Virus record (IMG/VR): IMGVR_UViG_3300010354_000084
Location: 233-64,232 of that record
Direction: 5' to 3' (one strand)
DNA: 64,000 nucleotides
Origin: a virus
Taxonomy: Duplodnaviria > Caudoviricetes
Shown here piece by piece: positions 10,501 to 53,916 of this stretch; position 1 is the stretch's first letter; every line of letters starts with the position of its first letter. A program made the position numbers and the translations under genes. The notes below the pieces were generated by a model. It was given only the letters and a program-made list of their open reading frames with translations, was not told where the DNA came from and did no database searches.

Positions 10501-10716
10501 ATGGACTATTTGAAAGTTACTGGTCATGATGGTCTAGTAAGAGATAAGGATACTGGAGCCATTATAAATACTGATAAAAGCGTATTTGAAAGTGTTAAAA
10601 AAGCACGTCTAAATGCTTCTTCGTTTCATCAAATCCAACAGGATGTCCACCTTCTAAAAGAAGAACTTTCTGATATCAAAAATCTTCTACGAGAGTTATT
10701 AAAAAATGGCAGTTAG
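10501..10716 (+). CDS. Small conserved cyanophage protein with C-terminal coiled coil
   Basis: YLKVTGHDGLVRDKDTGAIINTD followed by a heptad-like tail; tightly packed between the neighbouring genes. Confidence 0.75.
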   Translation: MDYLKVTGHDGLVRDKDTGAIINTDKSVFESVKKARLNASSFHQIQQDVHLLKEELSDIKNLLRELLKNGS

Positions 10717-22554: not shown

Positions 22555-25500
22555 ATGAGCTTAAAGTTCAATCCAAAAAAGCAATTTATTGAATCATCTG
22601 AACTTAACTTAAACGGAAAATCTTTTCTAACATTAAGTTCAGGTGAAGGAACTGAAAACAAAGAAATTGTTAGAGTTGTTCGTAAAAACGGAACTTCTAG
22701 GGTTGGTTTAAATAGAACTGGAGAGAAGATAGCAAAAGTAACTATCACAAATCCAGGTTCTGGTTATTTAATTACTCCAGCAATTACTGTAAGTTCTCCA
22801 GATGGAAATATAAACTCTAGAGTTGCTGTTTTAAGTGCTGTAAGAGACCCCGATACTGGCAGCATTATTTCTGTACTGATTACTGATCCTGGTAAAGGTT
22901 ACACTTCCCCACCTTCAATTTCATTTAGTGATGCCCCACAAGGAGGTGTTACAGCTAGAGCTACATGTGAATTAGATACTATTGATTATGAATTGGATGT
23001 TTTGGGTGCTATTAGAACATCTGCTTCTATTGTTAGTGACAGTGCTACTGTAACTAACTTAAATGTTCAAAATTTTGTAACTCCAGGTATTTCTCTAAGA
23101 GCACCTAGATTAGTACCATACACAAATTTAACTAATACTAATTTACCTTTTTACGGACAAACAGTATATCCAGAATCTGTTACTCCACCTCTACAAGATC
23201 AAAGTAATAGAATTGCCACAACTAAATTTGTATATGACGTTGCTACAAATGATGTTGGTGGTCGTATCTACGTTTCTTCCGAAATTGGTAGTGATACCAA
23301 CAATGGTAGATCTCCTGCTAAACCAGTAAAGACAATTAAAAAAGCTGCTCAATTAGCAGCTGCTACTCCAGTTAGAGAAACTTTAATTGTTGCTGGTGGA
23401 GAATATTATGAAGATAACCCAATTTCAATTCCACCCCTCTGTTCTGTAATTGGAGATAACTTAAGACTTGTAATTGTCAGACCATTAAATCCTGGTCGCC
23501 ATATGTTTAAGGCGAGTAACCAGAACTATATGAATGGTCTTACTTTCCGTGATGCTTTAGATACTGAAGGTAATCCAGTTTACACTCATAATTTTGCTTT
23601 TGTTTTTGACGATAAACAAAGATTTTATTTTGATGACGAAATTGGTGGAGATCCTACAAGAATTGATGGTTCGGATTCTTTCCAAAGAAGATTTCCAATC
23701 GGACATAAAATGTTCGGTCAAAGAAGTGCTATTCTAAAAATTAAAGAACATGACGGAGATATAACCACTCTACAGACATTAATATCTAATAATATTTCTA
23801 TTGTAGGTCAATCTTCATCTTGTTCTGCTAAAGTATCTTCTATTATATCAGCAACTCCAATTCCTGATTACGAATGGAGTGAAGAACAAGAATATGTTTT
23901 AGAGGATATTATTAGTGTTGAAGATTCTATATACAAAGTTACTACTGCTGGTACTAGTGGAACTATAGCATTTAGTGGTACACTAAGTACTCCAAAGCAA
24001 GCAACAAATGGAACGGCGGCATATATTTATCTTGGCGATAAAAAAGAAGCAATTTTAAATATCATTGTCAATGAAAACTCTCCTGCAGTTACATATACTG
24101 ATGATGAAGTAGTACAGTATACAATTAATAATAATTTTTATTCATTTAATGTAGCACTTTTTACTTCTACCAGAGCTGAGGGAGAAGTTGTTAAGTATGG
24201 AGAAACGGAAGTAAGAAATTATGTAGTACAATCAATAAATGCTTCTTCCTGGTCAACATACCCAACTCCTGGTGATGATGGACAACTAACAGTAGGAAGT
24301 GGTGGAGTTGTAATTACATTTGATGGTCTACATGACTTAAAAGAATTTGATATTGTCAATATTGCCAAACCAAATAATTCCCCATCTGCTTTATCATCTT
24401 TCTTTGGTTATCAAAGAGTTGATGAAGTTTTATATGATTCTGATGGATTTTCAAGAAGAATTGTAATTAAAAAACAGATAGCACCAAATTACAATTCTGT
24501 TTATGAACCACCTCCAGGACAGTGTACTGTTAGAGCAAAGACAAAATATGTTGAAATTAGTTTACTAAACTCTCCATACGGATTTACGGATTCAACATTT
24601 ACTTCATATAGATTTTTAGATGCTGTTACTTTTATTAGAAACAACAGAGATTTTATTGCTGAAGAAATAACTGGCGCAATAACTTCTAAGTATCCAGATT
24701 TTGTTTATCCAGGAACCGCTACATCAAGATATAGATTTAAAGATTCTAGAAACTTAATTTATAAAAATTTAGATTATATTGCTGATGAAGCAATTGGTTG
24801 GTTATACAATGAATCTAATTATGCTGTTTGGGGACAATCCAATTTAGATAAAAAAGATAAGTGTAGAAGAGATGTTAAATATTTCTTACGTGGTGTAGCA
24901 AACGATTTATATGATGGAGGAAATAAAAATAGTATTCTAGTTGCTAAATCATATTTTAACGCAGTAACTGGCGCTCCTATTACTGGAGGTATCGCTGGAG
25001 TAGAAGCACAATCTGTAGCAGTATTCAATAAAGCTAGAGATCTAGCAAAACTAGCTATCACAAATTCTCTTCCTGTAAAACCAACATATTCTCCTCTTTC
25101 TCCATATACAGATTTTTCTTTAACAGCAGATCCAACAACAAATACAAACCAACAAAATAGTAATAATTGTTCTGATGTACGAACTGCTATTGACAACTTA
25201 GCATTTATTGTAACTGATACAATAATTAATGGAGTTAATGTATTACCAGAACCAACATCAAATACTCAAGATGGAGAAAATTTCTGTAAGAGAGATATTA
25301 AGCATATTTTAAATGCTGTTATGGCGGATCTTCCATATGGCGGCAATGCTATTTCAGTTGAAGCTGCAAAATCGTATAGAAATAACTCAACATCTTCTAT
25401 TGAATATATTGCCAATCAACATAGACAATCTAGATTTGCTTTTAGATTAGCTAGAGATTATTCAATCTTAGCTATGAGAAATTGGCAAACAAAAATTAAT

Positions 25501-28500
25501 ATGACATTCTTTGAAGACAGTGACGTAGTTGAAGTTAACTCAACGGTTGGTCTCGTTCCTAAAATGAGATTGTATTATTACAATCTATCCGACCAGCAAG
25601 TTGCTACAGATTATTACATCAAAGAAGTACTTTCGCCAACTCAAGTAAGAATTTGGAAGCATTCTACAGGAACTTCTGGTTCTGATCATACTTTAGATGG
25701 ATCTGGAAGCACTGCTGGAAACACAAGACCAATTAATCTAAAATTAGAAGAAGGTCAAACTTCACTTTTATCTCAGTGGAGAGATGATTTAGTTCCAAGA
25801 ACAACTGATTATCCAGAATTTCCAGAATGTGCTGATGTTGCTAATACATTAATAAATTTATTTACATTAATTACAGATATCGTAACTAATAATACCGACG
25901 ATCGCTATTTTGATGCTACTGATTTAATAGATGCTAATAAAGAATTTATTGCTGAAGAAGTATCTGGATGGTTAAAAGAAACCTATGATGGATTTGCTTA
26001 TCCATTACCAGTATTCACTAAAATTGTTTTAGAACAATCTGTGGCGGATGTATATCCTTCTTATCTAAAAGTTAATAACTTATCTGACATAAAAGTTGGA
26101 CAACTAGTTTCCGTATCGGGTGATGCTATATCAGATAACACTTACATATCTTCTATAGATTATGATAACAATAGAATTTATTTAACTAAACCATTAAATG
26201 CTTTAGTTGGCGATGAAGTTACAATTCATCCTGATGTTTATCTAGATGAATCAATGAGATATAAGGATGCTTCAAACCTTATTCTCAAGAATAAAAACTA
26301 TATTGCCGATAGAGCTCTTGCTGAAGTTGCTGTAGAATATCCAGATTTTAATTTTCCAGGAAATTCAGTAACAGATGAATTTAGTAGATTTGCTGATGGT
26401 TATCGTTTGATTCAGCAAAATAAAAAAGAAATTATTGATTTTGCTTCTGCTGAAATTGCTGTTCAACATCCAGATTTTTATTTCCCTGGAGATACACAGA
26501 CTACACAAAGATCTAGATTTAAAGATTCGTATCGTTTAATTCAATTAAATCGTCAAGAAATTATCGATAGCGCCTATGCCGTTATGGCATCTGCTGGACT
26601 TCCTAACCCAGCCCCAACTGATCTAGAAAATAAGTGTAAGCGTGATATTGGGTTCTTAGTTGATTACATTTCTTTAGATATTTTTGTTGGTGGCAATACA
26701 TACGCTAGAAAATTTATTCTATCATATTTTGATGGAAATAATTTTATTTCGAATGGATTGGCAGGTGAAGTAACACAATCTATCACAGCATTTAATGCTG
26801 CTAGAGATCTGATGAAGCAAGCGATTGCTAATCAATTGACTATCAAAGATTTAACTATCACCGATGATCCATTAACTAATGATAACACAGATCCTAACTC
26901 ATGTGCTAATGTACAATCTGCCATCACATCATTAGTTGCTGTTGTAACAGATGTATTATCATCATTAGATTTGAATGACTTAGCAGTAGAAAATGATGGA
27001 AACAATAATAGATATGAAGATGCTGCTGATCTCATTTATAGTAACAAGCAGGAAATTATTGATCGTGCTGCTGCTCAGATTGGTGTAGATTATCCAGATT
27101 TTTATTATCCTGGAGATCCACAAACAACTCCAAGATCAAGATTTAAAGATTCTTATCGTCTAATTCAACAAAATAAAACTGAAATTGTTACTACTGCTTG
27201 GACTAATATGGTTACGCAGTACCCAGCAGTTGCTTCAACAGAAACAAAATGTAAGCGTGATTTAGGATATTTTGTTGATGCTATTTCTCTTGATCTTGCT
27301 CAAGGTGGTGGTAATAAGTACTCTCGTAAATTTGTGTTACAATATTTTAATAATGGAGTTCCTATTTCTAATGGTCTTGTTGGTGAAGTCACTGAAAGTG
27401 TTTATGCTTTTAATCAAGCAAAAAACTTAATGCAGGCAGCGATTACTAACCAATTAACTGTAAAAGATCTAACAATAACCGCAGATCCAAATCCAGGAAC
27501 TGGATCTTCGTCGAATACAAATATTACTTCTTGCTCTAATGTACAAACAACTATTTCAAATTTAACTGGTTTAGTTACTAGTGTATTACAAAACGGAAAT
27601 CTGTCTGGATTAGCGGAAGAAACAAATGGAATTATTCCAGATGGCGAAGCAAAATGTAAGAGAGATATAGGACATTTTGTAAATGCTATTGAAGCAGATT
27701 TAAGACAGTTAACTGATTACAATACAAGAACATTTTTATCATATTATTTTGAGGAAGATGGAACAGGTTGGGCAAGCACAACTCTAGAAGGAGAACAAAC
27801 TCAATCTATTGTTGCTTTTGAAAAGGCGAGGGATGTTATTATCTTAGCATTCACGAATCAGTTATATGAGAAAGATTTAACTATTACAGAAGATCCTTTA
27901 ACTGGAAGCAATATAGATCCAGATTCTTGTTCAGATGTTCAAACTCTTGTAGGAACTCTAACTACATTAGTGACAGACACTATTACCGCTGGATCTCTTG
28001 GATCTTCTAGACAGAATTTTATTTCTGCTGCTACATATAATATTCTTCGTGGGGAGATTAAATGTAAGAGAGATATCGGATACTTTGTTGATGCTGTTTC
28101 TTTGGATGTATTCACAAAAGGAAACATATACTCCAGAGAATTTACAAAGCAATATTTCACTAATGTTTCTTCCCCATTAACAAATGGTTTAGTAGGAGAA
28201 ACCGCTGAATCTATCACAGCTTTTAATAAAGCTCGTGACATGATGAAAAAAGCGGTAACAAATCAATTATTTGTGAAAGATTTAACTTTATCGGAAGGTC
28301 CTGCTACTTATGGTGGTGGCGGTGGAGATATTCCATTACTTCCTTCTGGAAATACAAACTCTTGTGTTGATGTACAATCTGCTATCACAACTGCTACACA
28401 AATTATTACAACAGTAATTTCCGATGGTGACTTAGCATCTCTAGATTCATTCACAGAATCTCAAGGAGAATTTGGTATTGGGGAAACTAAGTGCCGTAGA

Positions 28501-31500
28501 GATATTGGTTACATTATTGATTCTGTAGCAAAAGATCTTGCTGATGGCGGAAATTGGAGATCTGTAACTGCTGCTAGATATTATTTCACTGAAGGTCAAC
28601 CAATTTCAAATGGTTTGGTTGGTGAAGAAGCAGCTTCTATTGTTGCTTTTAATAAAGCAAAAGATTTAATGATTTCTGCTATCACAAATCAATTAAATTA
28701 TCATGATCTTTCTATTAGTATAGATCCAGAGAGATTATCAAACCTCGACAAATATTCATGTGCTAATGTTCAGTCAACTATTACAAATTTAGTATCAATC
28801 ATCACTACAATAATTGATGATGGTAACCTAAATTCATTGAATGGTATTACTGTTACCAAAGGATCTTATTCAACGAATGAAAGAAAGTGTGTAAGAGATA
28901 TCAAATATATGATTGATGCTGTCATTAATGACATCACTTTAAATGATTCAAATAAAAACAGTATTAATTATGCTAATTTCTACAAGCAACAAAATGGTAA
29001 TATTAAATTAATTGATAGTCAATTAATTCAGTCTGTTGCTGCTTTTAGAAAGACTAGAGATCTCTGTGTTCTTGCTATGAGAAATTGGACAGAGTTCCCA
29101 CAAAAACAATTATATAATAAGAAATACACAGATTTGAATTACATTAGAGATGAATTTGTAATTGTAGATGATGAAACGCCATACTGTTCTAATGTGGCAT
29201 CGGCAATTACTTCTAGATTTGATTTGATTATTAACATTTTAACTGGAGATGCTGATAATGAATACTTAGATACTGCCAATCAAATTGCTATTAATGAAAA
29301 CTTTATTATTGAGGAATCACTCGCTGCTGGCGAAGTCGCTTTCCCGAATACCACAATTCCAAATATTACTAAGTGTAAGAGGGATTTAAGATTTATTCTT
29401 CGTGCTATTCAACGTGATGTAATTTTAGGAGGAACTGTAGGAATTATTAGAGCTGCCGATTCTTATTTAACTGGCGCTAATTCAGGTGTAGATTTTGTTG
29501 GAGATCAATTAGGAAAAACTCTACACATTTATGAATATGCTAAGCATATGGCAATTGCTGCTACAAGAAATTGGCATTTTGAAATACAAAATTGCGCAAC
29601 TTCTGGTGGTTTTGCTACTGTATCAGTTCCAAATACTGATGGAATAGTTATTGGAATGAGAGTATCTGCTAATCAATTCAGATATACTGATTACACCCCA
29701 AATGCTTATGCTCACGTAATTGGAATTGACAGAGAAGATAATATAATTACCTTAGATCAAGTAGCAAATGTAACTACAACTACAGCAAAACTGTACTTCA
29801 CTTTCAGTGAAGTTGGTGCTCCTTGGTTCGATGCTGCTAATAGTATTTCTGCCAACAAGACTTTTATTGCTCAAGAAGCTGTAGGATATATTGAAGATAT
29901 CTATCCATATTTAACTACATTGAATGCCTCGCCAGGATATACTGAATTAGTATCAGATTATGATAATGCTACGTGTCAGCGAGATATCGGATATGTTTTA
30001 GATGCTTTCATTCATGATTTAAGATTTGGAGGAAACTCAGAAACAATTAGAGCAGCAGAATATTACCGAGATGCTTCTGGTCACTTAGATTATATTGGTA
30101 ATCAGTTAATTCAAAGTCTAGAGACATTTGAAAAAGTAAAGGATTTAGCAATTCTTTCTATAAGAAATTGGAAGACTGGTTCTAGCACAACATATACCAA
30201 AGAATATGCTACAGCAAATTATGTAGTAAATAATGATCTTTTAGATGATCCATCTGGTTATCCAGAATGTGCTTTCGTTGAATCTTCTATTGAATCACTG
30301 TTTGAACAATTTATTGATGTACTAACAAATAATTCTGGTGGCACTAAGATTGATGCTGCTAGATTAATCGCTAGAAATTTTGTATATATTGCTGAAGAAG
30401 CATTAGGTGCTGCTAACAATCAATATCCTTTAATTAACATACCAGATGAAACTAAGTGTAAGAGAGATATTCAGTTAGTATTAACAGCGATTATTAAAGA
30501 TATAATTACTGGAGGAAACTCTGGAATTCTACAGGCAACAGAAGCTTACTTAACACCAGTGGGAGCTGTAACATTCATTAATGATGAATTACAAAAGAGT
30601 CAGTATGCTTTTGAATATGCTAAGAATTTAGCAAAATTAGCAATTACAAATAACTTACCAGCAGGAACATATACTCTAGAAACTCCTTATACAGATCTTT
30701 CTATTTTACCAGATCCTATTACAAATGATAATACTGATCCAGATTCTTGTGCTAATATTCAAAGCACTATAGAATCTATCTGGGCAATTTTAGATAGTGT
30801 TTTAACTCAATCTGGTGCTCCATTACCATCTCCAAATTATGGTATTCAATATAATGTTATTAAATATTATCCACAAAACTTCCCTGGAAAGTTTGCTGGA
30901 ACATACTTTAAAGGATTACAACGTGCTTCTACAGATGAATTTATCACTGAAGATACTTCATATCCAGAATGTTCAACTGTTGTAACCACTCTAATAAATT
31001 TATTTGCTATTTTATCTTCTACATTAAATGGCAATCCTTTACCAGAAGTCACAAACGATAATCCATTCACACCTACATTAAACCAAGGTACTCTTTATAA
31101 CCCAACAGTTATACAAGGTTCTGGAACTATGACTGATGCTGGTAATAGACCAGTAATTCGTGGCAGAATGATTAATGCTAATGATGTAATTGAAGTATCT
31201 CCTTATATCCAAAACTGTTCTATTATTTCATTCTTAGGTGGCGGTGGATGTGAGGTTGATGGTTCTAAGATCAAGCAAATTAACGTACCTCGTCCTGGAT
31301 TAGACGAGAATGGTAAATCTATTTTAGCACCTCAGGGTAAATCAATGGTTGCTAATGCGTTTACCATTATTTCTCAAGGGGGTACTGGTTACTTAGTTAA
31401 AGAAGATGGTTACTGTCAGCTTGTGTCTGTGTTCTGTATCTTCTGTCAAGATGGTATTCTTGCTGAGACTGGTGGATATGCTTCTGTAACTAACTCTGCT

Positions 31501-34500: not shown

Positions 34501-37500
34501 TTTTACCTAGATGCTTCAAACTTAGATTCTGGAACATTAAGATCAGATAGACTTTCTGGAACATATTCAATTGATATCACTGGTAAATCTGGTACTACTT
34601 CAAGACTCGAAACAAATACAGATTCTATTAATGCTATACCAGCACCTTCGGCTTATGCTTCTGGGTTATCTTTAGCTCTAAGAATTTCGGAAAATTATAG
34701 ATCTACAATATCTGACCGAACATTAGAAAATGAAGGTTCGAGAGTTACATTACTGACTGTAAGACCTTCTGGTATCGGCACCGATGCTGGTGGTGGTGGT
34801 CTTAAGCAGTTAGCATTTACTGATGGAACAGTAAACGTTGGTACAGGCGGTGGTGGTCCTAGTTCAGCAATTACTTCAGACGATGTTGTACCAAACCTTT
34901 ATATTCGTGGTACTGGCAACATTATCCCAACAGATCCAACTAATGCTTGGTCTCCATGGTATAAAGTATGGACATCTGGTAATGATGGCGTTAATTCTGG
35001 ATTAGACGCTGATAAGCTACAATCAAAAGATCTTAAATGGTTTACTAATGGATTTAACATTGATGGTGGATCTATTAATGATAGTAGATTACAACCAATT
35101 TTAACTACTAAGAAATTCTTAGAATCTTTAACGACAGTAAGATACATCGATAAACCACATTATGAAATTTATTTCTCTGGAAGACTTAACAACGGAGACT
35201 TGAATTTTGCTATTGGAAATACATATTCATTATATAATGACATTTTACAAGTTGTTGGTAATGTTACATTAAAACAGATTGAACAGAAATTCCCAATTGA
35301 AACAATAAAATCTGAACTGAATTATGTTGTATTGACAGTACAATTAGATAGTGGTTCAATTGGATCTGCTACAAAGATTGGATATACTGGATTCGAGCAA
35401 TCATGGAGTTCTTTGAGAATTTCTCCATTTGGAACTTACACATCATCTATTTTAGAAGATGATGGAACTGGTGCTAGATTAATTCTTGGAAGAAATGATG
35501 GTAATAACGTTGCTAATAACACTCCAGCAAATGGATCTATAATTGATTTCCATTCCAGTGGGGCATTTAATGATTTTGATGTAAGAATTAAAGTAACTGG
35601 TGGTAACAGCAGCAATGGCAATGGTGCTCTAAACATCACTGGTAATGGATTTACTTACAATAATAATACAGTATGGCATTCTGGAAATGACACTGATGAT
35701 TCTGGTCTAAACGCTAATACCTTACAGGGCATTACAAGATTCCAGGTAATGAGATCTGATCAGGATACTTCAACATCTGGCAACCTAACTGTTACTGGAA
35801 CTTCAACTCTAAACAGTTTAGTCGTTATTAACGATGCTGCTCAATTAGCAGATAATACAATCATCGACCCAGATAGCTATGCTAACAAGGTTGTTGCTGG
35901 TACTATCGCTGATGGCGGCGGTTTCTCTGCTCTAGGTATTGGTGGTCAGAATGGAACTGGTAAGTCATGGGCTATTGGACATAATGGAACTTCATTGTTC
36001 TTTGCTATTGGAAATGGAAGTGCTGCTAATACTTTATCGTCTTGGGCAAAAGTAGATTCAGATAGAACTATTAGATTATATGCTAAAGACAATAGTTCAA
36101 TTTTCTTCACATCAGGAAATACCGATTATAGAATTTGGAATGAAAATAATGATGGTTCTGGATCTGGATTAGATGCTGATTTACTTGATGATAAAGATTG
36201 GAATTCCAGAGATAAATCAATTCTAAGAAACTCTGGAGATCATATTGCTGGTGGTATTTACATTAATAATGGTACTAAGTATCAGTCATCTAATTACGGT
36301 TTCTTACTTAAGCATTCTGATGCTACTGGTGTTTCTACTGGTGGTGGTGGAAGATTAGATATTGTATTTGGTAACGATGCTTCAAGATCGGCAGATAACG
36401 TTGTAAATACTTTAGCAACATTCTCCTTCGATAAGTCTGGTCAGTTAATTATTCCAGCTTCTACTGGAACTGCTCCATTCTCAATTTCATCAACAACTAA
36501 AGTAACCAATCTAAATGCTGATTTACTTGACGATCAGACTGGTTCTTACTACACCAATATGGACAATGCTGATGCTGGGACTCTGGCAGCAGTACGTGGT
36601 GGCACTGGATTGAATTCATATTCTGTTGGCGATATTTTATATGCTACTGCCACAACTCCAACTCTAGGTAAGTTGACAATTGGTAGTGCCAATCAAATTC
36701 TAACTGTAAATTCTTCTTCTACTGCCCCTCAGTGGACAACTCCTTCAACTATCACTGTTGGATTTGCTACTAATATTGGAATCACATCAGACACAGCAAC
36801 AACATCTGCTTTAGCTGTAGGATTCTTTAGTACATCTAGTTCCACAGCACCAGTCAAGTATAGCACAGATTCAACAAACGGATTAACATTTATTCCAAGT
36901 ACAGGAACATTAAAAGCGTCAATTTTCTCGGGTGCTTTATCTGGTAATGCTACCAGTGCTACAAATGTTTCTGCTGGTGGTTCTGCTGGTTCTCTATTAT
37001 ATCAATCATCTCTCAACACTACAACAACACTTGGAATTGGAACAGCTGGACAAATTCTTGTTGTTAACTCTACAGGAAATGCTCCTCAATGGACAACTCA
37101 AAGTGCTCTCACTGCTGGTAATATTGCTGGCGGCGCTCAGGGAGAGATTTTATATCAATCTGGTCCTGGATTAACAGGAAAACTTGCTGTCGGTACTGCT
37201 GGATTTATTCTATCTACGAATGGAAGTAATCAAAATCCTTCATGGATTTCTCAGTCTTCGATTACAGCGGGCAATATTAATGCTGGTACTACTGGTGATT
37301 TACTTTATCAATCTGCTTCTAGTAGCACTTCTAAATTAAATATTGGAACTGCTGGACAAGTTCTAGTTGTTAATGCTGGTGCTACCGCTCCTTCGTGGAC
37401 TGACCAAAGCAATATAACTGCTGGCAATATTGCTTCAGTTGCTGGAGACAATTTCAAACTTCTCTACCAATCTGCTGCCAATACGACATCAAAACTATCA

Positions 37501-39054
37501 ACAGGAACTGCTAACCAAGTTCTTCTTTCTGGAGGTTCTGCTGCTGCTCCAACATGGGTCAATCAATCTTCAGTTACAGCGGGCAATATTAGTGCTGGTA
37601 CTACTGGTGATTTACTTTATCAATCTGGTGCTGGTGCTACCGCTAAGTTAAATATTGGAACTGCTGGACAAGTTCTAGTTGTTAATGCTGGTGCTACCGC
37701 TCCTTCATGGGTTGCTCAAAATACACTCACTGCTGGCAATATTTCTGGTGGAGCTAACGGAGAACTTCTATATCAATCAGCATCTGGAACTACAACTAAG
37801 TTGGCAGTATCAACTGCTGGATATATTTTACAAACCAACGGAGGTGGATCAGCACCTTCATGGGTTGCTCAAAATACACTCACTGCTGGCAATATTTCTG
37901 GAGGAAGTGCTGGAGAACTTCTATATCAATCTGCTTCAAATACTACAGCAAAATTATCAGTAACCGCTGCTGTTGCTGGACAAGTATTAATATTAAATGC
38001 TAGTAAGATCCCATCATATACAGATCAATCAAATATAACTGCTGGCAATATTGCTTCAGTTGCTGGAGACAATTTCAAACTTCTCTACCAATCTGCTGCC
38101 AATACAACATCAAAACTATCAACAGGAACTGCTAATCAAGTTCTACTTTCTGGTGGTTCTTCTGCTGCTCCAGCATGGACAAACCAAAGTTCACTTTCTG
38201 TTGGATCTGCTGGCAATATTACTGGAGGTAATCAAGGTGAACTTCTTTATCAATCCGCTGCTGGTACAACATCTAAACTTGCTGCTGGGGCATCAACCCA
38301 AGTATTGATTGGTGGAACAACATCACCAGCTTGGTCAAACATTAGTGGATTAAATGTATTATCTGCCGTCAATTTAAGATTGGCAGCTAATAATACTACT
38401 GGCGCCATTCATTATCAAACTGGAGCTGATGCTACCACTGGTTTAGCAATCGGAACTGCTGGTCAAGTTCTAATTGTTAATGCTGGTGCTACTGCTCCTT
38501 CATGGACTGCTCAAAGTACGTTATCCGTGGGATCAGCTACTACAGCAACCAACGTTACCGCTGGTATGGTTGATAATGCTGATAATTACATGAACTTCCG
38601 TGTAATGAGAAACAGCAATACCACAACTAATAATGATGGTATGTTCATTGGTTATGGAAATAGCAATAGTGGAATTACAAGATTATATGGTGGTGGATCC
38701 ACAACCAATAACGTAACTATTAACTCTGCTGGCGATATAACTGCTTCTGGTCAAATTACAGCATCTTCTGATGTTAAACTTAAGGAAAATATCACTACAA
38801 TTGAAAATGCTCTTCATAAAGTTTCTAAACTTCGTGGTGTAGAATTTGATAGAATTGATATTAAGACTCATCAAATTGGTTTAATTGCTCAAGAAGTTGA
38901 AGAGATAATTCCTGAGGTTGTTCAGGAAAATGAAAATGGTTATAAGACTGTTGCTTATGGCAACGTAGTCGCTCTACTCATTGAAGCAATCAAGGATCAG
39001 CAAAATCAAATTAATGCTCTTCAAGAAGAAATTAAATCTTTAAAGAACAATTAA
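22555..39054 (+). CDS. Giant tail-fibre-like protein (5499 aa): split beta-helix, 11 phycobiliprotein-like domains, fibre repeats and C-terminal intramolecular chaperone (peptidase S74)
   Basis: IYVS...G.D.NNG beta-helix start; 11 CxRD repeats; SGLDADLLD-type fibre motifs; about 50-aa LLYQS repeats; C-terminal SDVKLKENI...IGLIAQEVE..IPEVV...LLIEAIK S74 signature. Confidence 0.8.
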   Translation: MSLKFNPKKQFIESSELNLNGKSFLTLSSGEGTENKEIVRVVRKNGTSRVGLNRTGEKIAKVTITNPGSGYLITPAITVSSPDGNINSRVAVLSAVRDPDTGSIISVLITDPGKGYTSPPSISFSDAPQGGVTARATCELDTIDYELDVLGAIRTSASIVSDSATVTNLNVQNFVTPGISLRAPRLVPYTNLTNTNLPFYGQTVYPESVTPPLQDQSNRIATTKFVYDVATNDVGGRIYVSSEIGSDTNNGRSPAKPVKTIKKAAQLAAATPVRETLIVAGGEYYEDNPISIPPLCSVIGDNLRLVIVRPLNPGRHMFKASNQNYMNGLTFRDALDTEGNPVYTHNFAFVFDDKQRFYFDDEIGGDPTRIDGSDSFQRRFPIGHKMFGQRSAILKIKEHDGDITTLQTLISNNISIVGQSSSCSAKVSSIISATPIPDYEWSEEQEYVLEDIISVEDSIYKVTTAGTSGTIAFSGTLSTPKQATNGTAAYIYLGDKKEAILNIIVNENSPAVTYTDDEVVQYTINNNFYSFNVALFTSTRAEGEVVKYGETEVRNYVVQSINASSWSTYPTPGDDGQLTVGSGGVVITFDGLHDLKEFDIVNIAKPNNSPSALSSFFGYQRVDEVLYDSDGFSRRIVIKKQIAPNYNSVYEPPPGQCTVRAKTKYVEISLLNSPYGFTDSTFTSYRFLDAVTFIRNNRDFIAEEITGAITSKYPDFVYPGTATSRYRFKDSRNLIYKNLDYIADEAIGWLYNESNYAVWGQSNLDKKDKCRRDVKYFLRGVANDLYDGGNKNSILVAKSYFNAVTGAPITGGIAGVEAQSVAVFNKARDLAKLAITNSLPVKPTYSPLSPYTDFSLTADPTTNTNQQNSNNCSDVRTAIDNLAFIVTDTIINGVNVLPEPTSNTQDGENFCKRDIKHILNAVMADLPYGGNAISVEAAKSYRNNSTSSIEYIANQHRQSRFAFRLARDYSILAMRNWQTKINMTFFEDSDVVEVNSTVGLVPKMRLYYYNLSDQQVATDYYIKEVLSPTQVRIWKHSTGTSGSDHTLDGSGSTAGNTRPINLKLEEGQTSLLSQWRDDLVPRTTDYPEFPECADVANTLINLFTLITDIVTNNTDDRYFDATDLIDANKEFIAEEVSGWLKETYDGFAYPLPVFTKIVLEQSVADVYPSYLKVNNLSDIKVGQLVSVSGDAISDNTYISSIDYDNNRIYLTKPLNALVGDEVTIHPDVYLDESMRYKDASNLILKNKNYIADRALAEVAVEYPDFNFPGNSVTDEFSRFADGYRLIQQNKKEIIDFASAEIAVQHPDFYFPGDTQTTQRSRFKDSYRLIQLNRQEIIDSAYAVMASAGLPNPAPTDLENKCKRDIGFLVDYISLDIFVGGNTYARKFILSYFDGNNFISNGLAGEVTQSITAFNAARDLMKQAIANQLTIKDLTITDDPLTNDNTDPNSCANVQSAITSLVAVVTDVLSSLDLNDLAVENDGNNNRYEDAADLIYSNKQEIIDRAAAQIGVDYPDFYYPGDPQTTPRSRFKDSYRLIQQNKTEIVTTAWTNMVTQYPAVASTETKCKRDLGYFVDAISLDLAQGGGNKYSRKFVLQYFNNGVPISNGLVGEVTESVYAFNQAKNLMQAAITNQLTVKDLTITADPNPGTGSSSNTNITSCSNVQTTISNLTGLVTSVLQNGNLSGLAEETNGIIPDGEAKCKRDIGHFVNAIEADLRQLTDYNTRTFLSYYFEEDGTGWASTTLEGEQTQSIVAFEKARDVIILAFTNQLYEKDLTITEDPLTGSNIDPDSCSDVQTLVGTLTTLVTDTITAGSLGSSRQNFISAATYNILRGEIKCKRDIGYFVDAVSLDVFTKGNIYSREFTKQYFTNVSSPLTNGLVGETAESITAFNKARDMMKKAVTNQLFVKDLTLSEGPATYGGGGGDIPLLPSGNTNSCVDVQSAITTATQIITTVISDGDLASLDSFTESQGEFGIGETKCRRDIGYIIDSVAKDLADGGNWRSVTAARYYFTEGQPISNGLVGEEAASIVAFNKAKDLMISAITNQLNYHDLSISIDPERLSNLDKYSCANVQSTITNLVSIITTIIDDGNLNSLNGITVTKGSYSTNERKCVRDIKYMIDAVINDITLNDSNKNSINYANFYKQQNGNIKLIDSQLIQSVAAFRKTRDLCVLAMRNWTEFPQKQLYNKKYTDLNYIRDEFVIVDDETPYCSNVASAITSRFDLIINILTGDADNEYLDTANQIAINENFIIEESLAAGEVAFPNTTIPNITKCKRDLRFILRAIQRDVILGGTVGIIRAADSYLTGANSGVDFVGDQLGKTLHIYEYAKHMAIAATRNWHFEIQNCATSGGFATVSVPNTDGIVIGMRVSANQFRYTDYTPNAYAHVIGIDREDNIITLDQVANVTTTTAKLYFTFSEVGAPWFDAANSISANKTFIAQEAVGYIEDIYPYLTTLNASPGYTELVSDYDNATCQRDIGYVLDAFIHDLRFGGNSETIRAAEYYRDASGHLDYIGNQLIQSLETFEKVKDLAILSIRNWKTGSSTTYTKEYATANYVVNNDLLDDPSGYPECAFVESSIESLFEQFIDVLTNNSGGTKIDAARLIARNFVYIAEEALGAANNQYPLINIPDETKCKRDIQLVLTAIIKDIITGGNSGILQATEAYLTPVGAVTFINDELQKSQYAFEYAKNLAKLAITNNLPAGTYTLETPYTDLSILPDPITNDNTDPDSCANIQSTIESIWAILDSVLTQSGAPLPSPNYGIQYNVIKYYPQNFPGKFAGTYFKGLQRASTDEFITEDTSYPECSTVVTTLINLFAILSSTLNGNPLPEVTNDNPFTPTLNQGTLYNPTVIQGSGTMTDAGNRPVIRGRMINANDVIEVSPYIQNCSIISFLGGGGCEVDGSKIKQINVPRPGLDENGKSILAPQGKSMVANAFTIISQGGTGYLVKEDGYCQLVSVFCIFCQDGILAETGGYASVTNSASNFGTYALRATGYRREPYSFDIGTIGEIGVSSAGKTIFKLNGLGRKPQENFIMKIDGYQNVVSDIEYFVTVVSQTTVGGTGEVSSRIELNDAILVKNISSGLTVNLNTSELIGKTVRLFRPSIINSSGHSFEYIGSGINYYGLPENGGQKKEDNEQVSQRYGRVYASGTDEAGDFKVGRTVKMENRTGNIYFTGQVSISEIEFLRIRGGDLIVTGFDQSPTLGGAAATNQKLPTQKAVRDFVTNNLGPFFNKPYSTNPVPNALVELGNDGKINLDQIPPIRPFKVYTVANSTERLALEGLNSGDIAVQVTRLNDVVSYTDVDVANNKIYTPKTGFSSGQIVSITNVTGDPILTDGGPVTSGNFYYIIVLENNYIQLASSPENVINEIPLVITDEGNGNTSIEIATGTVSYILNNDSDSQFLAYAPDSDVTFTNGQLVIGSATGAIGTVDDTLEGTLYSISVVSGGNVYLNESPSIIISAPDLPGGVQATATADVVGLRISSIKITEKGSGYSTPPTIQSSIGEIAWSSGQSYDVDDLIYVGTNLYTVTISGTSGNSAFSGQSVTPQPADGGTCFYSYVGERAEIIGFVESRVYINIENATKFIDTDNIEDHSTPQNTVNISRVVNTSSTNEFNWVPLTTASIDASSISTGTISTSRLSLPNSGSANSFTFLRGDQSYKPVVQGLKLPETKFLQKVLITSESGLSYLTFPLTSLIQTGQRVEGNGIPADTIVSDTVTISGNTRVILSSLITNTITKNSIITFYRTETPLQFDSTFTKGAYAANIFIENPGNYFISTGSGNSGENTIIVVDGTGVILNQQVTGTGIGTNATVTDVTFTTGTEAIITLSTNNTSSITNQSIQFGRPFTTGTFNNIELFGSNTGSGAKASFTIQNGLISNAVITDGGIGYTEDFFISPIPGALGTGTGAILKVLASSQQTYFSNIEVDIKRVNNQTTSLDPYGTVGVARFLKSQFNYGPNGALSLKTGPESGLDSDLLDGKQGAFYLDASNLDSGTLRSDRLSGTYSIDITGKSGTTSRLETNTDSINAIPAPSAYASGLSLALRISENYRSTISDRTLENEGSRVTLLTVRPSGIGTDAGGGGLKQLAFTDGTVNVGTGGGGPSSAITSDDVVPNLYIRGTGNIIPTDPTNAWSPWYKVWTSGNDGVNSGLDADKLQSKDLKWFTNGFNIDGGSINDSRLQPILTTKKFLESLTTVRYIDKPHYEIYFSGRLNNGDLNFAIGNTYSLYNDILQVVGNVTLKQIEQKFPIETIKSELNYVVLTVQLDSGSIGSATKIGYTGFEQSWSSLRISPFGTYTSSILEDDGTGARLILGRNDGNNVANNTPANGSIIDFHSSGAFNDFDVRIKVTGGNSSNGNGALNITGNGFTYNNNTVWHSGNDTDDSGLNANTLQGITRFQVMRSDQDTSTSGNLTVTGTSTLNSLVVINDAAQLADNTIIDPDSYANKVVAGTIADGGGFSALGIGGQNGTGKSWAIGHNGTSLFFAIGNGSAANTLSSWAKVDSDRTIRLYAKDNSSIFFTSGNTDYRIWNENNDGSGSGLDADLLDDKDWNSRDKSILRNSGDHIAGGIYINNGTKYQSSNYGFLLKHSDATGVSTGGGGRLDIVFGNDASRSADNVVNTLATFSFDKSGQLIIPASTGTAPFSISSTTKVTNLNADLLDDQTGSYYTNMDNADAGTLAAVRGGTGLNSYSVGDILYATATTPTLGKLTIGSANQILTVNSSSTAPQWTTPSTITVGFATNIGITSDTATTSALAVGFFSTSSSTAPVKYSTDSTNGLTFIPSTGTLKASIFSGALSGNATSATNVSAGGSAGSLLYQSSLNTTTTLGIGTAGQILVVNSTGNAPQWTTQSALTAGNIAGGAQGEILYQSGPGLTGKLAVGTAGFILSTNGSNQNPSWISQSSITAGNINAGTTGDLLYQSASSSTSKLNIGTAGQVLVVNAGATAPSWTDQSNITAGNIASVAGDNFKLLYQSAANTTSKLSTGTANQVLLSGGSAAAPTWVNQSSVTAGNISAGTTGDLLYQSGAGATAKLNIGTAGQVLVVNAGATAPSWVAQNTLTAGNISGGANGELLYQSASGTTTKLAVSTAGYILQTNGGGSAPSWVAQNTLTAGNISGGSAGELLYQSASNTTAKLSVTAAVAGQVLILNASKIPSYTDQSNITAGNIASVAGDNFKLLYQSAANTTSKLSTGTANQVLLSGGSSAAPAWTNQSSLSVGSAGNITGGNQGELLYQSAAGTTSKLAAGASTQVLIGGTTSPAWSNISGLNVLSAVNLRLAANNTTGAIHYQTGADATTGLAIGTAGQVLIVNAGATAPSWTAQSTLSVGSATTATNVTAGMVDNADNYMNFRVMRNSNTTTNNDGMFIGYGNSNSGITRLYGGGSTTNNVTINSAGDITASGQITASSDVKLKENITTIENALHKVSKLRGVEFDRIDIKTHQIGLIAQEVEEIIPEVVQENENGYKTVAYGNVVALLIEAIKDQQNQINALQEEIKSLKNN
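24610..31030 (+). repeat. Array of 11 phycobiliprotein-like (globin-fold) protein repeats within the 5499-aa gene
   Basis: CxRD Cys codons at 24862, 25285, 26635, 27250, 27655, 28063, 28492, 28888, 29374, 29974 and 30457; 11 second-Cys motifs; 11 helix-A-like xxDA motifs. Confidence 0.75.
36620..38540 (+). repeat. About 11 copies of a roughly 50-aa G/A/T/S-rich fibre repeat (AGNI..G..G.LLYQS....T.KL..GTAGQVL..N....PSW)
   Basis: Read from the translation; near-identical DNA blocks at about 37411-37515 and 38032-38136. Confidence 0.85.
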
Positions 39055-39072
39055 TACGGAAAACCCCACAAC

Positions 39073-39101
39073 TTGACTATAATAAATAACTATGTTACAA
39101 T
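39073..39101 (+). promoter_or_regulatory. Composite promoter: sigma70-like TTGACT-17-TACAAT (with extended TG) and a late box AATAAATA inside the spacer
   Basis: -35 at 39073-39078, -10 at 39096-39101, AATAAATA at 39081-39088. Confidence 0.6.
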
Positions 39102-39139
39102 ATCCACCATTCAGTATTATTAGGCAGGAGATTCGACAA

Positions 39140-39352
39140 ATGACAACTGATACAGCTTCTCTACGTGAGAACTTTAATAATCAACTCGCTAACGTTAATG
39201 AGCAGATTACCAAACTCGAAAAAGATTTGGAAAGAGCTAAAGAATATAAAATTAAACTACAAGGTGGTCTAGAAACTCTACAGATTCTAGATCCCCAAGA
39301 AGAAACATCAGCAGAAGAAACTCCAGTTTCTGAAACTGAAGTTGTAGAATGA
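39140..39352 (+). CDS. Small coiled-coil protein with acidic tail (70 aa)
   Basis: ATG 39140 is preceded by the SD-like CAGGAG and is preferred over the listed 39092 start, which overlaps the promoter; heptad pattern. Confidence 0.75.
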   Translation: MTTDTASLRENFNNQLANVNEQITKLEKDLERAKEYKIKLQGGLETLQILDPQEETSAEETPVSETEVVE

Positions 39353-39357
39353 TTCTT

Positions 39358-39378
39358 GCCCCCGAAAGGGGGTTTTTT
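39358..39378 (+). terminator. Intrinsic terminator GCCCCC-GAAA-GGGGGT-TTTTT
   Basis: GC stem, GNRA loop and U-tract just after the stop at 39352. Confidence 0.8.
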
Positions 39379-39381
39379 AAT

Positions 39382-39825
39382 ATGAAATTTGAATCTATTA
39401 TAGGACAATACTTAAATAAGAAGCAAGCGTTTTCTTATCCATCCCAGTATGCAATGATCAGAATTGTATACAAAGATCTGGGTAACAACAAATTACATTC
39501 TCAAAATTGGTATGAATATCAATATCCAAAAGGAAAACCATACCGACAAGAGTATCACAAGTATGAATACATATCACAAAATGAAGTGGCATTTCAATCA
39601 TATAATATGAATTGGGAGCATAATTGTGATTATATTTTTAATTATACAAATGGTTTCTGGGTAGCTACAGCATGTAAGGAATGTATTGTGAAAGACATAA
39701 GAATTGTCAGCGAAGTAAAGTTCAATGAATATCAGTATATTGCCAAGGATGCTGGTTATAATTCTGATGGAAAATTAGTGTTTGGTAAAGATACTGGAAG
39801 TCCCTTCATGTTTGACAGACTATAA
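39382..39825 (+). CDS. cpeT: Phage CpeT/CpcT-like (T-type) phycobiliprotein bilin lyase
   Basis: T-type lyase motifs G.Y.NKKQAF..P..Y..I, Q.WY......PYRQ, C.Y.F and D.GY..DG..VFG...PF.F. Length (147 aa) fits the short phage form. The alternative start at 39349 would translate through the terminator. Confidence 0.8.
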   Translation: MKFESIIGQYLNKKQAFSYPSQYAMIRIVYKDLGNNKLHSQNWYEYQYPKGKPYRQEYHKYEYISQNEVAFQSYNMNWEHNCDYIFNYTNGFWVATACKECIVKDIRIVSEVKFNEYQYIAKDAGYNSDGKLVFGKDTGSPFMFDRL

Positions 39826-39828
39826 ATA
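39821..39828 (+). promoter_or_regulatory. Late promoter TATAAATA upstream of g13
   Basis: Perfect consensus overlapping the cpeT stop codon. Confidence 0.75.
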
Positions 39829-39849: not shown

Positions 39850-40674
39850 ATGGCAAGACCATCTAGTAGAGCAGAACTAATTGCTTATTGTAAACGCCAA
39901 TTAGGATCTCCAGTATTACAAATTAATATCGATGATGATCAAGTTGATGACATCATCGATACTGCCATTCAGTTTTATCAAGAGTGGCATTATGATGGTG
40001 TTGAAACCATGTATCTAAAACATGAAATTACAGAAGAAGATCAGAATCGATTTACTGGATCTGATGAATCAGAAGAAGCACCGAATGATGATATTTGGGT
40101 AAATAGAAATAATTATATAGAAGTTCCAGATCATGTTCTTGGAGTCACAAAAGTATTTGGAGTTTCTTCTAATTGGGTTCGTAATGATTTGTTTGGTTTG
40201 AGTAATCAATATTTCCTGATGGATATTTTTTCATTCTCATCTGGTTTTGCTTTTGGTAATTTTGACATGACAAATTACTACATGATTCGCCAGTATTTCG
40301 AAACTCTTGATATGGTTGTAAATACTGGAGCTTTAGTTCAATTCAGATTTAATAAACGTCAAGACCGATTGTACCTTGATGTTGACAAATCTAGAATAGT
40401 TCCAGGAAATTATTTACTAATTGAATGTCATAGAGCTTTAGATCCAGAAGATTGGTCTCAAGTATATAATGACAGTTTCTTGAAAAAATATGCCACTGCT
40501 TTAATGAAGAAGCAGTGGGGACAAAACTTAATTAAGTATAATAATGTGACTCTTCCTGGAGGGTTATCATTGAATGGTAGGCAACTTTACGAAGATGCTC
40601 TAGGAGAGATAGAGCAACTAGAAAATGATATGCCTACCAAGTATACACTTCCACCAATAGACATGATCGGATAA
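39850..40674 (+). CDS. gp13: Neck protein gp13
   Basis: MARPSSR.ELI.YC.RQLG.PVLQINID.DQ; YND.FLKKY.TAL.K.QWGQNL.KY..V.LPGG..LNG. Confidence 0.93.
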   Translation: MARPSSRAELIAYCKRQLGSPVLQINIDDDQVDDIIDTAIQFYQEWHYDGVETMYLKHEITEEDQNRFTGSDESEEAPNDDIWVNRNNYIEVPDHVLGVTKVFGVSSNWVRNDLFGLSNQYFLMDIFSFSSGFAFGNFDMTNYYMIRQYFETLDMVVNTGALVQFRFNKRQDRLYLDVDKSRIVPGNYLLIECHRALDPEDWSQVYNDSFLKKYATALMKKQWGQNLIKYNNVTLPGGLSLNGRQLYEDALGEIEQLENDMPTKYTLPPIDMIG

Positions 40675-52427: not shown

Positions 52428-52433
52428 TCATTT

Positions 52434-52441
52434 TATAAATA
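52434..52441 (+). promoter_or_regulatory. Late promoter TATAAATA upstream of g23
   Basis: Perfect consensus, intergenic; SD GGAG follows. Confidence 0.8.
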
Positions 52442-53898: not shown

Positions 53899-53916
53899 TC
53901 CATCACTGAGTTTATT

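Follow-up and report, generated by a model that had tools for sequence, protein, structure and literature searches.

Does a marine cyanobacterial virus, in which the gene of a pigment-attaching enzyme adjoins that of a giant tail fibre made of pigment-protein-like units, pigment its own fibre? The adjacency of the two genes and the pigment-binding residues kept in the fibre suggest, as far as sequence can tell, that it may, and we regard chromophorylation of the fibre by CpeT as a plausible reading that falls somewhat short of an even chance. The window, the whole analysed stretch of 64,000 nucleotides of IMG/VR record IMGVR_UViG_3300010354_000084, reads in a PHROGs scan as a structural module of the T4-like type, from gp6 to gp46. 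Among its 30 ORFs scanned against PHROGs, cpeT is the sole member of the auxiliary-metabolic category, in agreement with the earlier note, which had seen no photosynthesis auxiliary genes in the window and had correctly placed cpeT within the structural module, about 330 bp 3' of the fibre gene (327 nt in our count) and followed by g13 (Table 1).

Table 1. Features of the fibre-cpeT-g13 region, in positions of the window.
Feature	Position	Strand	Evidence
Giant fibre gene, 5499 aa	22555..39054	+	ORF; PF00502 match
Array of 11 phycobiliprotein-beta-like units	24637..30834	+	CxRD motifs, PF00502
Modelled unit, fibre aa 1491-1695 (Asp1532, Cys1566-Lys-Arg-Asp, Cys1660)	27025..27639	+	AlphaFold2
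C-terminal Peptidase_S74, intramolecular chaperone of trimeric fibres and spikes	38767..38922	+	PF13884, E 2.1e-14, 54 bits
Sigma70-like promoter: TTGACT, 17-nt spacer, TACAAT, with TG	39073..39101	+	consensus match, 10/12
Small conserved ORF, phrog_580, putative coiled-coil, acidic tail	39140..39352	+	PHROGs, E 5.6e-16
Terminator-like hairpin GCCCCCGAAAGGGGG (39358-39373) and T-run, ending at cpeT ATG	39358..39381	+	hairpin scan
cpeT, phage T-type bilin lyase homologue, 147 aa, fibre-adjacent paralogue	39382..39825	+	PF06206, phrog_488 and 5hi8_A matches
TATAAATA, T4-type late-promoter-like box, overlapping cpeT end, 22 nt before g13	39821..39828	+	exact copies
g13, neck / head-tail adaptor	39850..40674	+	phrog_211, E 2.1e-44

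The assignment of the cpeT ORF to the CpeT/CpcT family is confirmed by matches to PF06206 (CpeT/CpcT, Pfam; 33.6 bits, where the cut-off is 21), phrog_488 ‘CpeT-like antenna protein’ (PHROGs; E 3.1e-33), the solved phage CpeT 5hi8_A (E 3.3e-4, residues 18-141) and Nostoc CpcT 4o4o_A (E 0.014), with the invariant Pro-Tyr-Arg, Asp and Cys pair all present. The ORF call runs from an upstream ATG at 39349, with the ATG at 39382 coming after the terminator-like hairpin. T-type lyases serve beta-Cys153, as given in the available text of PMC10452541.

The first 5000 aa of the fibre match PF00502 (Phycobilisome, Pfam) with E 1.8e-22 and 80.4 bits, and its relatives in isolates carry the annotation short tail fibre, tail protein or virion structural protein. 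CxRD motifs lie at fibre aa 770, 911, 1361, 1566, 1701, 1837, 1980, 2112, 2274, 2474 and 2635; taken singly, five of the 11 units match PF00502 at E<=1 (14.8-24.7 bits), one of them above the cut-off of 22.2. The earlier note overstated the case in giving all repeats both residues, the Cys155-like and the Asp39-like, with a second Cys (C..V/I, 89-102 residues after CxRD) in 9/11 units, units 2 and 9 being those without, and the Asp39-like helix segment, as read from alignment A1, in 6/11 (units 1, 3, 4, 9, 10 and 11), the Asp39-type helix being absent from the compact units 2 and 5-8. Cysteine placement is not by chance, because 20 of the 23 cysteines between fibre residues 770 and 2732 fall in one of the two motifs.

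An AlphaFold2 model of the unit at aa 1491-1695 (alignment A2; pLDDT 91.8, pTM 0.90) superposes on phycobiliprotein beta chains in VIA with Z 16-17 and an rmsd of 2.1-2.2 Å over 131-139 residues, where helical bundles can reach Z ~13 through arrangement alone. As modelled, the unit has the beta-phycobiliprotein fold, bearing out the description of the fibre as phycobiliprotein-like, at an overall identity to phycobiliproteins of just 11-21%. Foldseek with the same model returned phycobiliproteins throughout the top rows except 8u0f_C, a ‘bacterial fluorescent protein’ that is also the best VIA row (Z 16.8), and the A2 profile matched 94 PDB sequences at E<=1, the 60 matches listed being phycobiliproteins except, again, 8u0f_C; the C-terminal half of a unit, used as the query of a sequence search, gave chance matches only. 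The CxRD Cys of the A2 profile aligns on ‘KCARDIGYYLR’ of C-phycocyanin alpha. By aligned ranges (model 35..189 to PC-beta 32..172, and 34..189 to PE-beta 31..177), model Asp42 falls at beta-39 and Cys170, one residue ahead of the last helix (171-190), at beta-153 (PC) or beta-158 (PE), the Cys155 equivalence being one of ranges and not of a residue-level alignment.

The residues at these sites are conserved well beyond the window, with a non-redundant set of 77 units, drawn from IMG/VR loci and the window, keeping the Cys84-like Cys in 76, the Arg in 65, the Asp in 76, and the second, Cys155-like Cys in 75, and with the Asp39-like Asp kept in all 50 units having that helix. Placed by position, the site of T-type lyases would thus be kept in the fibre units. 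Asp39 of phycobiliproteins is known to hold the bilin, and the unit cysteines occupy what we take to be the positions of two well-separated beta-subunit pockets, which speaks against a disulfide within the domain. According to the available text of PMC10151467, each of the three named CXRD residues, Cys, Arg and Asp, contacts bilin.

Action of CpeT on the fibre could proceed as follows. The fibre would be a trimeric virion protein ending C-terminally in Peptidase_S74, with its N-terminal third a chain of beta-phycobiliprotein globin units carrying both beta-subunit bilin sites, the Cys84-type C-x-R-D and a Cys155-type site with its Asp39-type partner. Phage CpeT, as a presumed T-type lyase of the class serving the beta-Cys153/155 site, would load bilin (phycoerythrobilin or phycocyanobilin, from host or phage) onto the second cysteine of the units in the infected cell during fibre assembly, and loading of the CxRD cysteine would need either no lyase or an S-type lyase of the host. 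The families of the two genes, the fold, the conserved site residues, the co-occurrence, the partial synteny and the cpeT duplication are observed, and any bilin on the fibre, any contact between CpeT and fibre and any effect on the virion are inferred from them; a literature search for bilin on a phage fibre protein found nothing for or against. The lyase family, the beta-like units and the concordance of the two features across genomes speak for the proposal made in the earlier note, however the limitation of close synteny to one clade and the two state changes behind the concordance, both described below, weigh against it.

Both features, cpeT and the units, are present in 23 of the 30 complete cyanomyovirus genomes compared and absent from the other seven, with no discordant genome, whereas psbD, another common host-derived gene used as a control, is discordant in 7/30. 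The presence of cpeT is not independent of CxRD-unit fibres by this count, although the 30/30 concordance rests on two state changes, which suffice for the distribution of both features on the portal tree, where S-CAM7 and ACG-2014f (both features) nest within the clade having neither (SH-aLRT 99). Independent contrasts on this tree are concordant in 2/2 cases (sign test p 0.5), and with only two state changes the sign test cannot reach significance; the co-occurrence is suggestive, not significant. Unit arrays homologous to that of the window give tblastn matches in 349 phage records, and the A2 profile finds them in 23/30 complete genomes. One IMG/VR record (83% complete) has units and no cpeT, the expected place of cpeT, 50-58 kb upstream, lying at or beyond the contig end.

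Synteny follows in some isolates and fails in most, with a unit-bearing giant gene within ~3 kb of cpeT in only 5/23, all of the window's clade. In these five (S-PM2, Syn1, S-CAM1, ACG-2014e and S-RSM4), cpeT precedes by 1.1-3.1 kb the first unit match in an ORF of 3700-4500 aa on the same strand, and in five IMG/VR contigs cpeT is likewise upstream of the giant unit ORF, at 3.3-4.9 kb. The cpeT of the remaining 18 isolates is found among metabolic genes at a distance of 28-58 kb from the units, with CP12 adjoining it in several of them and, in P-SSM7, a bilin reductase directly downstream. Being limited to one clade, close synteny may have been inherited once. Additionally, cpeT is duplicated in the window's lineage, one copy beside each giant gene: in the relative G001, copy 1 precedes by ~1 kb an ORF of 3662 aa that contains four CxRD motifs, and copy 2 immediately follows the other giant gene, with the window cpeT and both G001 copies forming one clade (SH-aLRT 99).

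The 327-nt gap between the fibre gene and cpeT is itself occupied, holding a promoter-like site that is a consensus match only (nine sites in the region against a shuffle mean of 7.5), the small conserved ORF, and the terminator-like hairpin, one of two sites found against a shuffle mean of 0.4. The small ORF, of which the likely start at 39140 has AGGAG ahead of it, is at the same location in 6/6 close relatives, and a 151-nt metatranscriptome contig is identical to window 39111-39261 in this region. Exact copies of TATAAATA number four on the + strand and none on the - strand of the window, and the g13 region shares 71.5% DNA identity with S-PM2 gp13-gp14. With the terminator-like hairpin separating the fibre/small-ORF unit from cpeT, and a site of the host sigma70 type as the closest promoter-like sequence, joint expression of cpeT and the late fibre gene does not necessarily follow.

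These observations bear on the possibility, which we consider rather unlikely, that cpeT is an auxiliary gene for host phycobiliprotein beta subunits or host bilin traffic, with variable islands at the fibre border gathering host-derived genes and co-occurrence reflecting common descent in one large cyanomyovirus clade. The distant cpeT of 18/23 isolates, in the company of CP12 or the P-SSM7 bilin reductase, is consistent with this, as are the few state changes on the portal tree and the framing of the window cpeT by a terminator-like hairpin and the g13 late-promoter box, like an inserted gene; in S-PM2 the interval from gp5 to the giant gene contains a 2OG-Fe(II) oxygenase and small hypothetical ORFs as well. 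The full concordance, set against that of psbD, is harder to reconcile with it, as is the lineage-specific duplicate of cpeT that landed beside a second unit-bearing gene. Furthermore, the Prochlorococcus MED4 phages P-HM1 and P-HM2 carry cpeT, and to our knowledge MED4 phycoerythrin has no Cys155-type site, which we also count against a role in the host antenna. S-PM2 infection is reported to raise phycoerythrin per cell, an effect tied to cpeT in the available text of a review (PMC2984593), however Sullivan 2010 termed the role of phage cpeT unresolved (PMC3037559, available text).

A second alternative, which we think improbable, is that the units bind bilin without phage CpeT, either spontaneously, as the CXRD-bearing bilin-biosynthesis-associated globins do, or via host lyases, with CpeT having another task. 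The globins BBAG-1 and BBAG-3 self-assemble with bilins without a lyase in the available text of PMC10151467, the rank of 8u0f_C in VIA points the same way, and the S-type lyase PF09367 was found in 0/25 phage genomes, so that the CxRD site at least would be served without a phage lyase; however, the second Cys, at the T-type site, is conserved like the first (75/77 against 76/77), and cpeT tracks the units in all 30 genomes. A virion role for phage bilin-synthesis genes, as the earlier note had ventured, is not supported by the distribution of bilin reductase (PF05996), which does not track the fibre: it occurs in 8/25 phage genomes, two of which (P-SSM2 and S-SSM7) have neither cpeT nor units, and is absent from 15/21 unit-bearing genomes, with neither bilin reductase nor haem oxygenase found in an 81%-complete relative of the window's phage. 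That the units are bilin-free blocks of the fibre shaft, with the conserved Cys, Arg and Asp needed for folding, for binding metal or for linking chains and with cpeT having no connection to them, would fit the 5/11 compact units without the A/B helix bearing the Asp39-type residue and the lack of any coloured cyanophage particle on record in the literature searched, but it sits poorly with five residues kept at 84-100% despite 11-21% identity of the rest with phycobiliproteins, all five being residues that hold bilin in phycobiliproteins (for CXRD, PMC10151467, available text), and we think it no less doubtful.

For a CpeT acting on the phage's own fibre, cyanobacterial CpcT/CpeT and its beta Cys153/155 substrate offer the nearest parallel, with an enzyme of the same family (PF06206) and a substrate of the same fold as the modelled unit, having Cys at the beta-153/158 and Asp at the beta-39 positions. 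The cyanobacterial substrate is an antenna protein, whereas the phage candidate is a repeat array in a 5499-aa fibre with a Peptidase_S74 end and, unlike cyanobacterial phycobiliproteins, no evident alpha partner; the window CpeT is a short phage form of 147 aa, compared with 207 aa for 4o4o_A. PhiCpeT of Prochlorococcus phage P-HM1 (PDB 5hi8; Gasper et al. 2017, J Biol Chem 292:3089) is the best solved match of the window CpeT, both matching phrog_488, but identity is just 26-28% and P-HM1 cpeT lies 35 kb from that phage's own units. Gasper et al. in 2017 reportedly found that PhiCpeT tightly binds phycoerythrobilin, with a clear host substrate said not to be established.

Giant virion proteins of T4-like cyanophages (e.g. 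S-PM2 YP_195253, 3779 aa) have unit arrays homologous to those of the window fibre, and no annotation or paper naming these units as phycobiliprotein-like was found in the literature searched. The annotations given to these giant proteins of T4-like cyanophages read ‘short tail fiber’, ‘tail protein’ or ‘baseplate wedge initiator’. BBAG-1/-3 and the light-harvesting phycobiliproteins (Rockwell et al. 2023) share with the phage units a globin fold with CXRD, of which, in the available text of PMC10151467, the Cys binds ring A and both Arg and Asp form hydrogen bonds with the bilin, phages entering that text only for PcyX and PcyA. These proteins are free-standing, at ~150-180 aa, whereas in the phage a structural protein contains the units as a head-to-tail fusion.

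The 5499-aa fibre protein of the window (ORF 22555-39054) carries 11 CxRD motifs from residue 770 to residue 2635, with the C-x-R-D site present in 11/11 of its phycobiliprotein-beta-like repeats (units), and ends in a Peptidase_S74 intramolecular chaperone (E 2.1e-14), a domain typical of trimeric fibres. The first 5000 residues of the fibre match PF00502 (Phycobilisome protein) at 80.4 bits (E 1.8e-22, cut-off 22.2), with single units matching the profile weakly, five of 11 at E<=1 (14.8-24.7 bits) and one of 11 over the cut-off. The model of one unit (fibre residues 1491-1695; pLDDT 91.8, pTM 0.90) superposes on phycobiliproteins in VIA-align with Z 16-17 and an rmsd of 2.1-2.2 A over 131-139 residues, and, 8u0f_C aside, all 50 matches listed are phycobiliprotein chains, given as beta in those entries that name the subunit. 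The top Foldseek matches of the model also comprise only phycobiliprotein chains and 8u0f_C, at weak E-values of 5.6e-3 and above.

Related units were drawn from 77 IMG/VR loci (374 domain matches, 169 of them spanning most of the query), and the unit alignment holds the 75 units left after removal of rows more than 80% alike, together with two units of the window (77 in total). The profile of this alignment puts the CxRD cysteine onto the Cys84 motif ('KCARDIGYYLR') in C-phycocyanin alpha. Residues 35..189 of the unit model align with 32..172 of PC-beta and residues 34..189 with 31..177 of PE-beta, with a second cysteine (Cys170 of the model) lying one residue ahead of the last helix. Judged from these aligned ranges and secondary structure only, Asp42 of the model would be the equivalent of beta-39, and Cys170 that of beta-153 in phycocyanin or beta-158 in phycoerythrin; beta-Cys153 is described in the relevant part of a review (PMC10452541) as the site served by T-type lyases. 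The first Cys is kept in 76, the Arg in 65, the Asp in 76 and the second Cys in 75 of the 77 units, and an Asp39-like Asp is present in 50/50 units that have the helix in question. The earlier note held that every repeat keeps a Cys155-like and an Asp39-like residue, which is overstated, since in the fibre of the window nine of 11 units have the second Cys, and six have the Asp39-type helix with its Asp. A disulfide between the two cysteines of a unit seems unlikely on fold grounds.

Five units of the window, units 5-8 (27655-29265) and unit 2 (25285), are compact, measuring ~135 aa without the A/B helix, and in these the last helix, which bears the second Cys, appears to pass without a break into the CxRD helix of the unit that follows. 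A tandem of two compact units, modelled from an alignment of 12 rows, reached a mean pLDDT of 55.1, too poor to be read beyond helix order. When the PDB was searched with the sequence of a unit's C-terminal half, only chance matches were obtained (RPB7 and a xylanase, E 0.11-0.18), and a search of 5.8 billion proteins for free-standing relatives of 72-380 aa returned 25 matches, mostly short metagenome fragments, with no named phycobiliprotein at E<=1e-3. As the units are fused in tandem, we class them as domains homologous to phycobiliproteins and not as phycobiliproteins proper. They occur in 349 phage records, and in the literature searched we found no paper describing or naming phycobiliprotein-like units in phage fibres, which is no proof of absence.

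The earlier note had also placed a cpeT-like gene just after the fibre gene and before g13, and the family assignment of this ORF is confirmed by its matches to PF06206 (CpeT/CpcT; 33.6 bits, cut-off 21 bits), phrog_488 (E 3.1e-33, 143/153 positions covered) and, among solved structures, 5hi8_A, a phage CpeT (E 3.3e-4), and 4o4o_A, the CpcT of Nostoc (E 0.014). By sequence, the window cpeT is a member of the CpeT/CpcT family of T-type bilin lyases, and its product a candidate lyase. The protein retains the family-invariant Pro-Tyr-Arg, Asp and Cys pair, with P53, Y54 and C82 invariant and R55, C101 and D123 near-invariant in an alignment of 14 CpeT sequences, and likewise in a second alignment of 27. 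Their counterparts in 4o4o_A, by alignment of the window CpeT, are Tyr65, Arg66, Asp163 and Cys116/Cys137, residues which we take to have a catalytic role.

Features of the window around the fibre gene and cpeT
Feature	Position	Location	Remarks
Giant ORF, 2693 aa (phrog_358)	2416-10497	upstream of fibre gene	no CxRD motif
Giant ORF, 3743 aa, baseplate-wedge-like	10706-21937	upstream of fibre gene	no CxRD motif
Sigma70-like promoter	39073-39101	between fibre gene and cpeT	
Small conserved ORF, phrog_580	39140-39352	between fibre gene and cpeT	likely start 39140 behind AGGAG
Terminator-like hairpin and T-run	39358-39373	between small ORF and cpeT	T-run reaching cpeT ATG
cpeT, 147 aa	39382-39825	starts 327 nt downstream of fibre ORF	profile and structure-sequence matches
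Late-promoter-like box, exact TATAAATA	39821	ahead of g13	
g13	from 39850	follows cpeT	

Flanked on its 5' side by the terminator-like hairpin and on its 3' side by the next late promoter, cpeT stands in a position from which co-expression with the fibre gene is not evident. Metatranscriptome contigs (one run, 10% of sampled words present) cover only 38871-38903 and 39111-39280, the first a short stretch near the end of the fibre gene, the second lying over the small ORF; cpeT is not covered, and such contigs cannot show absence. The small phrog_580 ORF, predicted to form a coiled-coil with an acidic tail, holds its place after the fibre gene and ahead of cpeT in six of six relatives, and its region has an exact match in a metatranscriptome contig of 151 nt.

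The window is a 34% complete fragment (64 kb) of a T4-like cyanomyovirus with the gp6-to-gp46 structural module, and groups with S-CAM1, S-PM2, Syn1, S-RSM4 and ACG-2014e in the portal tree (SH-aLRT 100). Its G+C content reaches 0.46 in 52001-54000, where the major head protein gene lies, and is ~0.31-0.39 elsewhere. All six close IMG/VR relatives have the giant gene, small ORF, cpeT, g13 and g14 in this same order. In the five isolates named, cpeT lies on the same strand upstream of the first unit match, at 1.7 kb in S-PM2, 1.1 kb in Syn1, 1.3 kb in S-CAM1, 2.3 kb in ACG-2014e and 3.1 kb in S-RSM4; each has one cpeT, of the long, host-like form (Pfam E 1e-32 to 1e-43), and a unit-bearing ORF of 3700-4500 aa, which in S-PM2 begins 1.45 kb after cpeT. 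The upstream arrangement is also found in five IMG/VR contigs (3.3-4.9 kb), with cpeT 60 and 90 kb off in two others. Synteny, proposed in the earlier note as a check, is thus seen within ~3 kb in five of the 23 isolates having both features and in the lineage of the window, but not in the remaining 18 isolates, where 28-58 kb lie between cpeT and the units. Because all five such isolates belong to the clade of the window, close synteny may have arisen once. The lineage of the window adds a second event, with two cpeT copies, each beside a giant gene: in G001, an 81%-complete IMG/VR relative, copy 1 precedes by ~1 kb a 3662-aa ORF bearing four CxRD motifs, copy 2 immediately follows the other giant gene, the place that cpeT has in the window, and both form one clade with the window cpeT (quick tree, SH-aLRT 99).

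Several further features of these neighbourhoods were observed. S-PM2 (NC_006820) has a 2OG-Fe(II) oxygenase gene (165307-165888) in the stretch from cpeT to the giant ORF with the units, and two ORFs, 1563-2189 (209 aa) and 2868-3458 (197 aa), flank copy 1 in the same neighbourhood of G001 (L216). The RefSeq entry of S-PM2 also places 16 tRNA features (168556-173383) under one locus tag within the 3779-aa 'short tail fiber' CDS, which looks like an annotation artefact.

The co-occurrence of cpeT and units was assessed in 30 complete genomes, comprising the 17 of the 2010 comparison set, eight taken from the cpeT and unit match lists and therefore biased towards carriers, and five from other branches obtained by a portal search, which matched ~470 cyanomyovirus records. 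Units were sought with the profile of the unit alignment and cpeT with phrog_488, which detected the cpeT of P-SSM7 and S-ShM2 missed by PF06206 alone. Both features are present in 23 genomes and neither in seven (P-SSM2, S-SM2, S-SSM7, S-CRM01, SynMITS9220M01, MC09 and S-B68), with none discordant, and independence of cpeT from such fibres, which the earlier note had named as evidence against its proposal, is not what the 30/30 concordant genomes indicate, on two evolutionary contrasts. As a control, psbD and units are concordant in 23 and discordant in seven of the 30. Units without a cpeT occur in one IMG/VR record, 83% complete; in the usual layout the gene would fall at or past the end of that contig. 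An IMG/VR sample collected by major capsid protein, with 80 loci kept of at least 600, consisted almost only of short fragments with one complete genome, and was left out of the presence/absence counts.

Fisher's test, which takes no account of descent, gives p 5e-7 for the 30 genomes and 1.5e-3 for the neutral subset of 17. On the portal tree the co-occurrence pattern requires only two changes, with two carriers of both features, S-CAM7 and ACG-2014f, nesting among genomes with neither (SH-aLRT 99). The independent contrasts are concordant in two of two cases, and as there are only two, the coupling cannot reach significance. The main rival explanation draws on this point, holding that cpeT is an auxiliary gene aimed at the host, lodged where giant genes have variable borders, and that its co-occurrence with units comes from descent. 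We consider this rather unlikely, with the few changes on the tree and the distant cpeT of the 18 isolates on its side, and the complete concordance on the other. In the best-supported reading, held tentatively, CpeT would place bilin on the Cys155-type site in the units while the fibre is being assembled. The interpretation put forward in the earlier note, that CpeT chromophorylates the phage's own fibre, survives the tests run here as a hypothesis, with the evidence for coupling thin once shared descent is counted.

Two further explanations concern the units themselves. Binding of bilin by the units without the phage lyase appears improbable. On its side are the globins that take up bilin with no lyase, which Rockwell 2023 (PMC10151467) treats along with the CXRD motif, mentioning phages in the sections concerned only for reductases, and the finding of no S-type lyase in the 25 phage genomes searched; on the other, all unit-bearing isolates among the 30 genomes have cpeT. 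That the units are bilin-free is an equally poor prospect beside their conserved cysteines.

Light requirement and bilin supply bear on what a pigmented fibre would do. In darkness, adsorption fails for P-HM1 and P-HM2 but not for P-SSM2, according to Liu 2019 (PMC6628666), which also cites adsorption of S-PM2 as light-dependent and photosynthesis-independent, ascribed to light-sensitive receptors or tail fibres. The light-requiring P-HM1, P-HM2 and S-PM2 carry units and cpeT and the dark-adsorbing P-SSM2 neither, amounting to four data points only. Bilin reductase (PF05996) is present in eight of 25 genomes, and two of these, P-SSM2 and S-SSM7, lack cpeT and units. The reductase is absent from 15 of 21 unit-bearing genomes, and among unit-bearing phages it is found in 6/6 Prochlorococcus and 0/15 Synechococcus isolates; neither bilin reductase nor haem oxygenase was found in the 81%-complete G001. 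As the reductase does not track the units, the virion role that the earlier note envisaged for phage bilin-synthesis genes is unsupported as a general rule. In P-SSM7 (NC_015290) cpeT (13407-13835) is followed directly by the bilin reductase gene (13936-14535), a pair absent from the other genomes listed.

Taken together, these parts could form a joint reading, in our judgement an unlikely one, in which most marine T4-like cyanophages have fibres that are light-sensing biliproteins, loaded by CpeT, with phage bilin genes supplying the chromophore. If it were true, each unit would hold covalent bilins, the Cys155-type one being added by phage CpeT, the pigmented fibre would act as the light sensor in cyanomyovirus adsorption, long known to depend on light, and the bilin-synthesis genes of Prochlorococcus phages would provide the chromophore where the host makes little. 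One testable answer would then serve three old cyanophage puzzles: the purpose of phage cpeT, whose role is called 'unresolved' in the pertinent passages of Sullivan 2010 (PMC3037559); the bilin-synthesis genes in phages of phycobilisome-less Prochlorococcus, with the role of pcyA and pebS termed 'a mystery' in the same passages; and the adsorption of cyanomyoviruses, light-dependent without host photosynthesis in the account of PMC6628666.

The link between CpeT and the fibre is thus a strong, cheaply testable hypothesis rather than a result, and the units merit description even should the lyase link fail. If the link holds, cpeT, a textbook 'auxiliary metabolic gene', becomes a morphogenesis gene, and the fibre, if pigmented, would to our knowledge be the first light-absorbing structural part of any virus particle.
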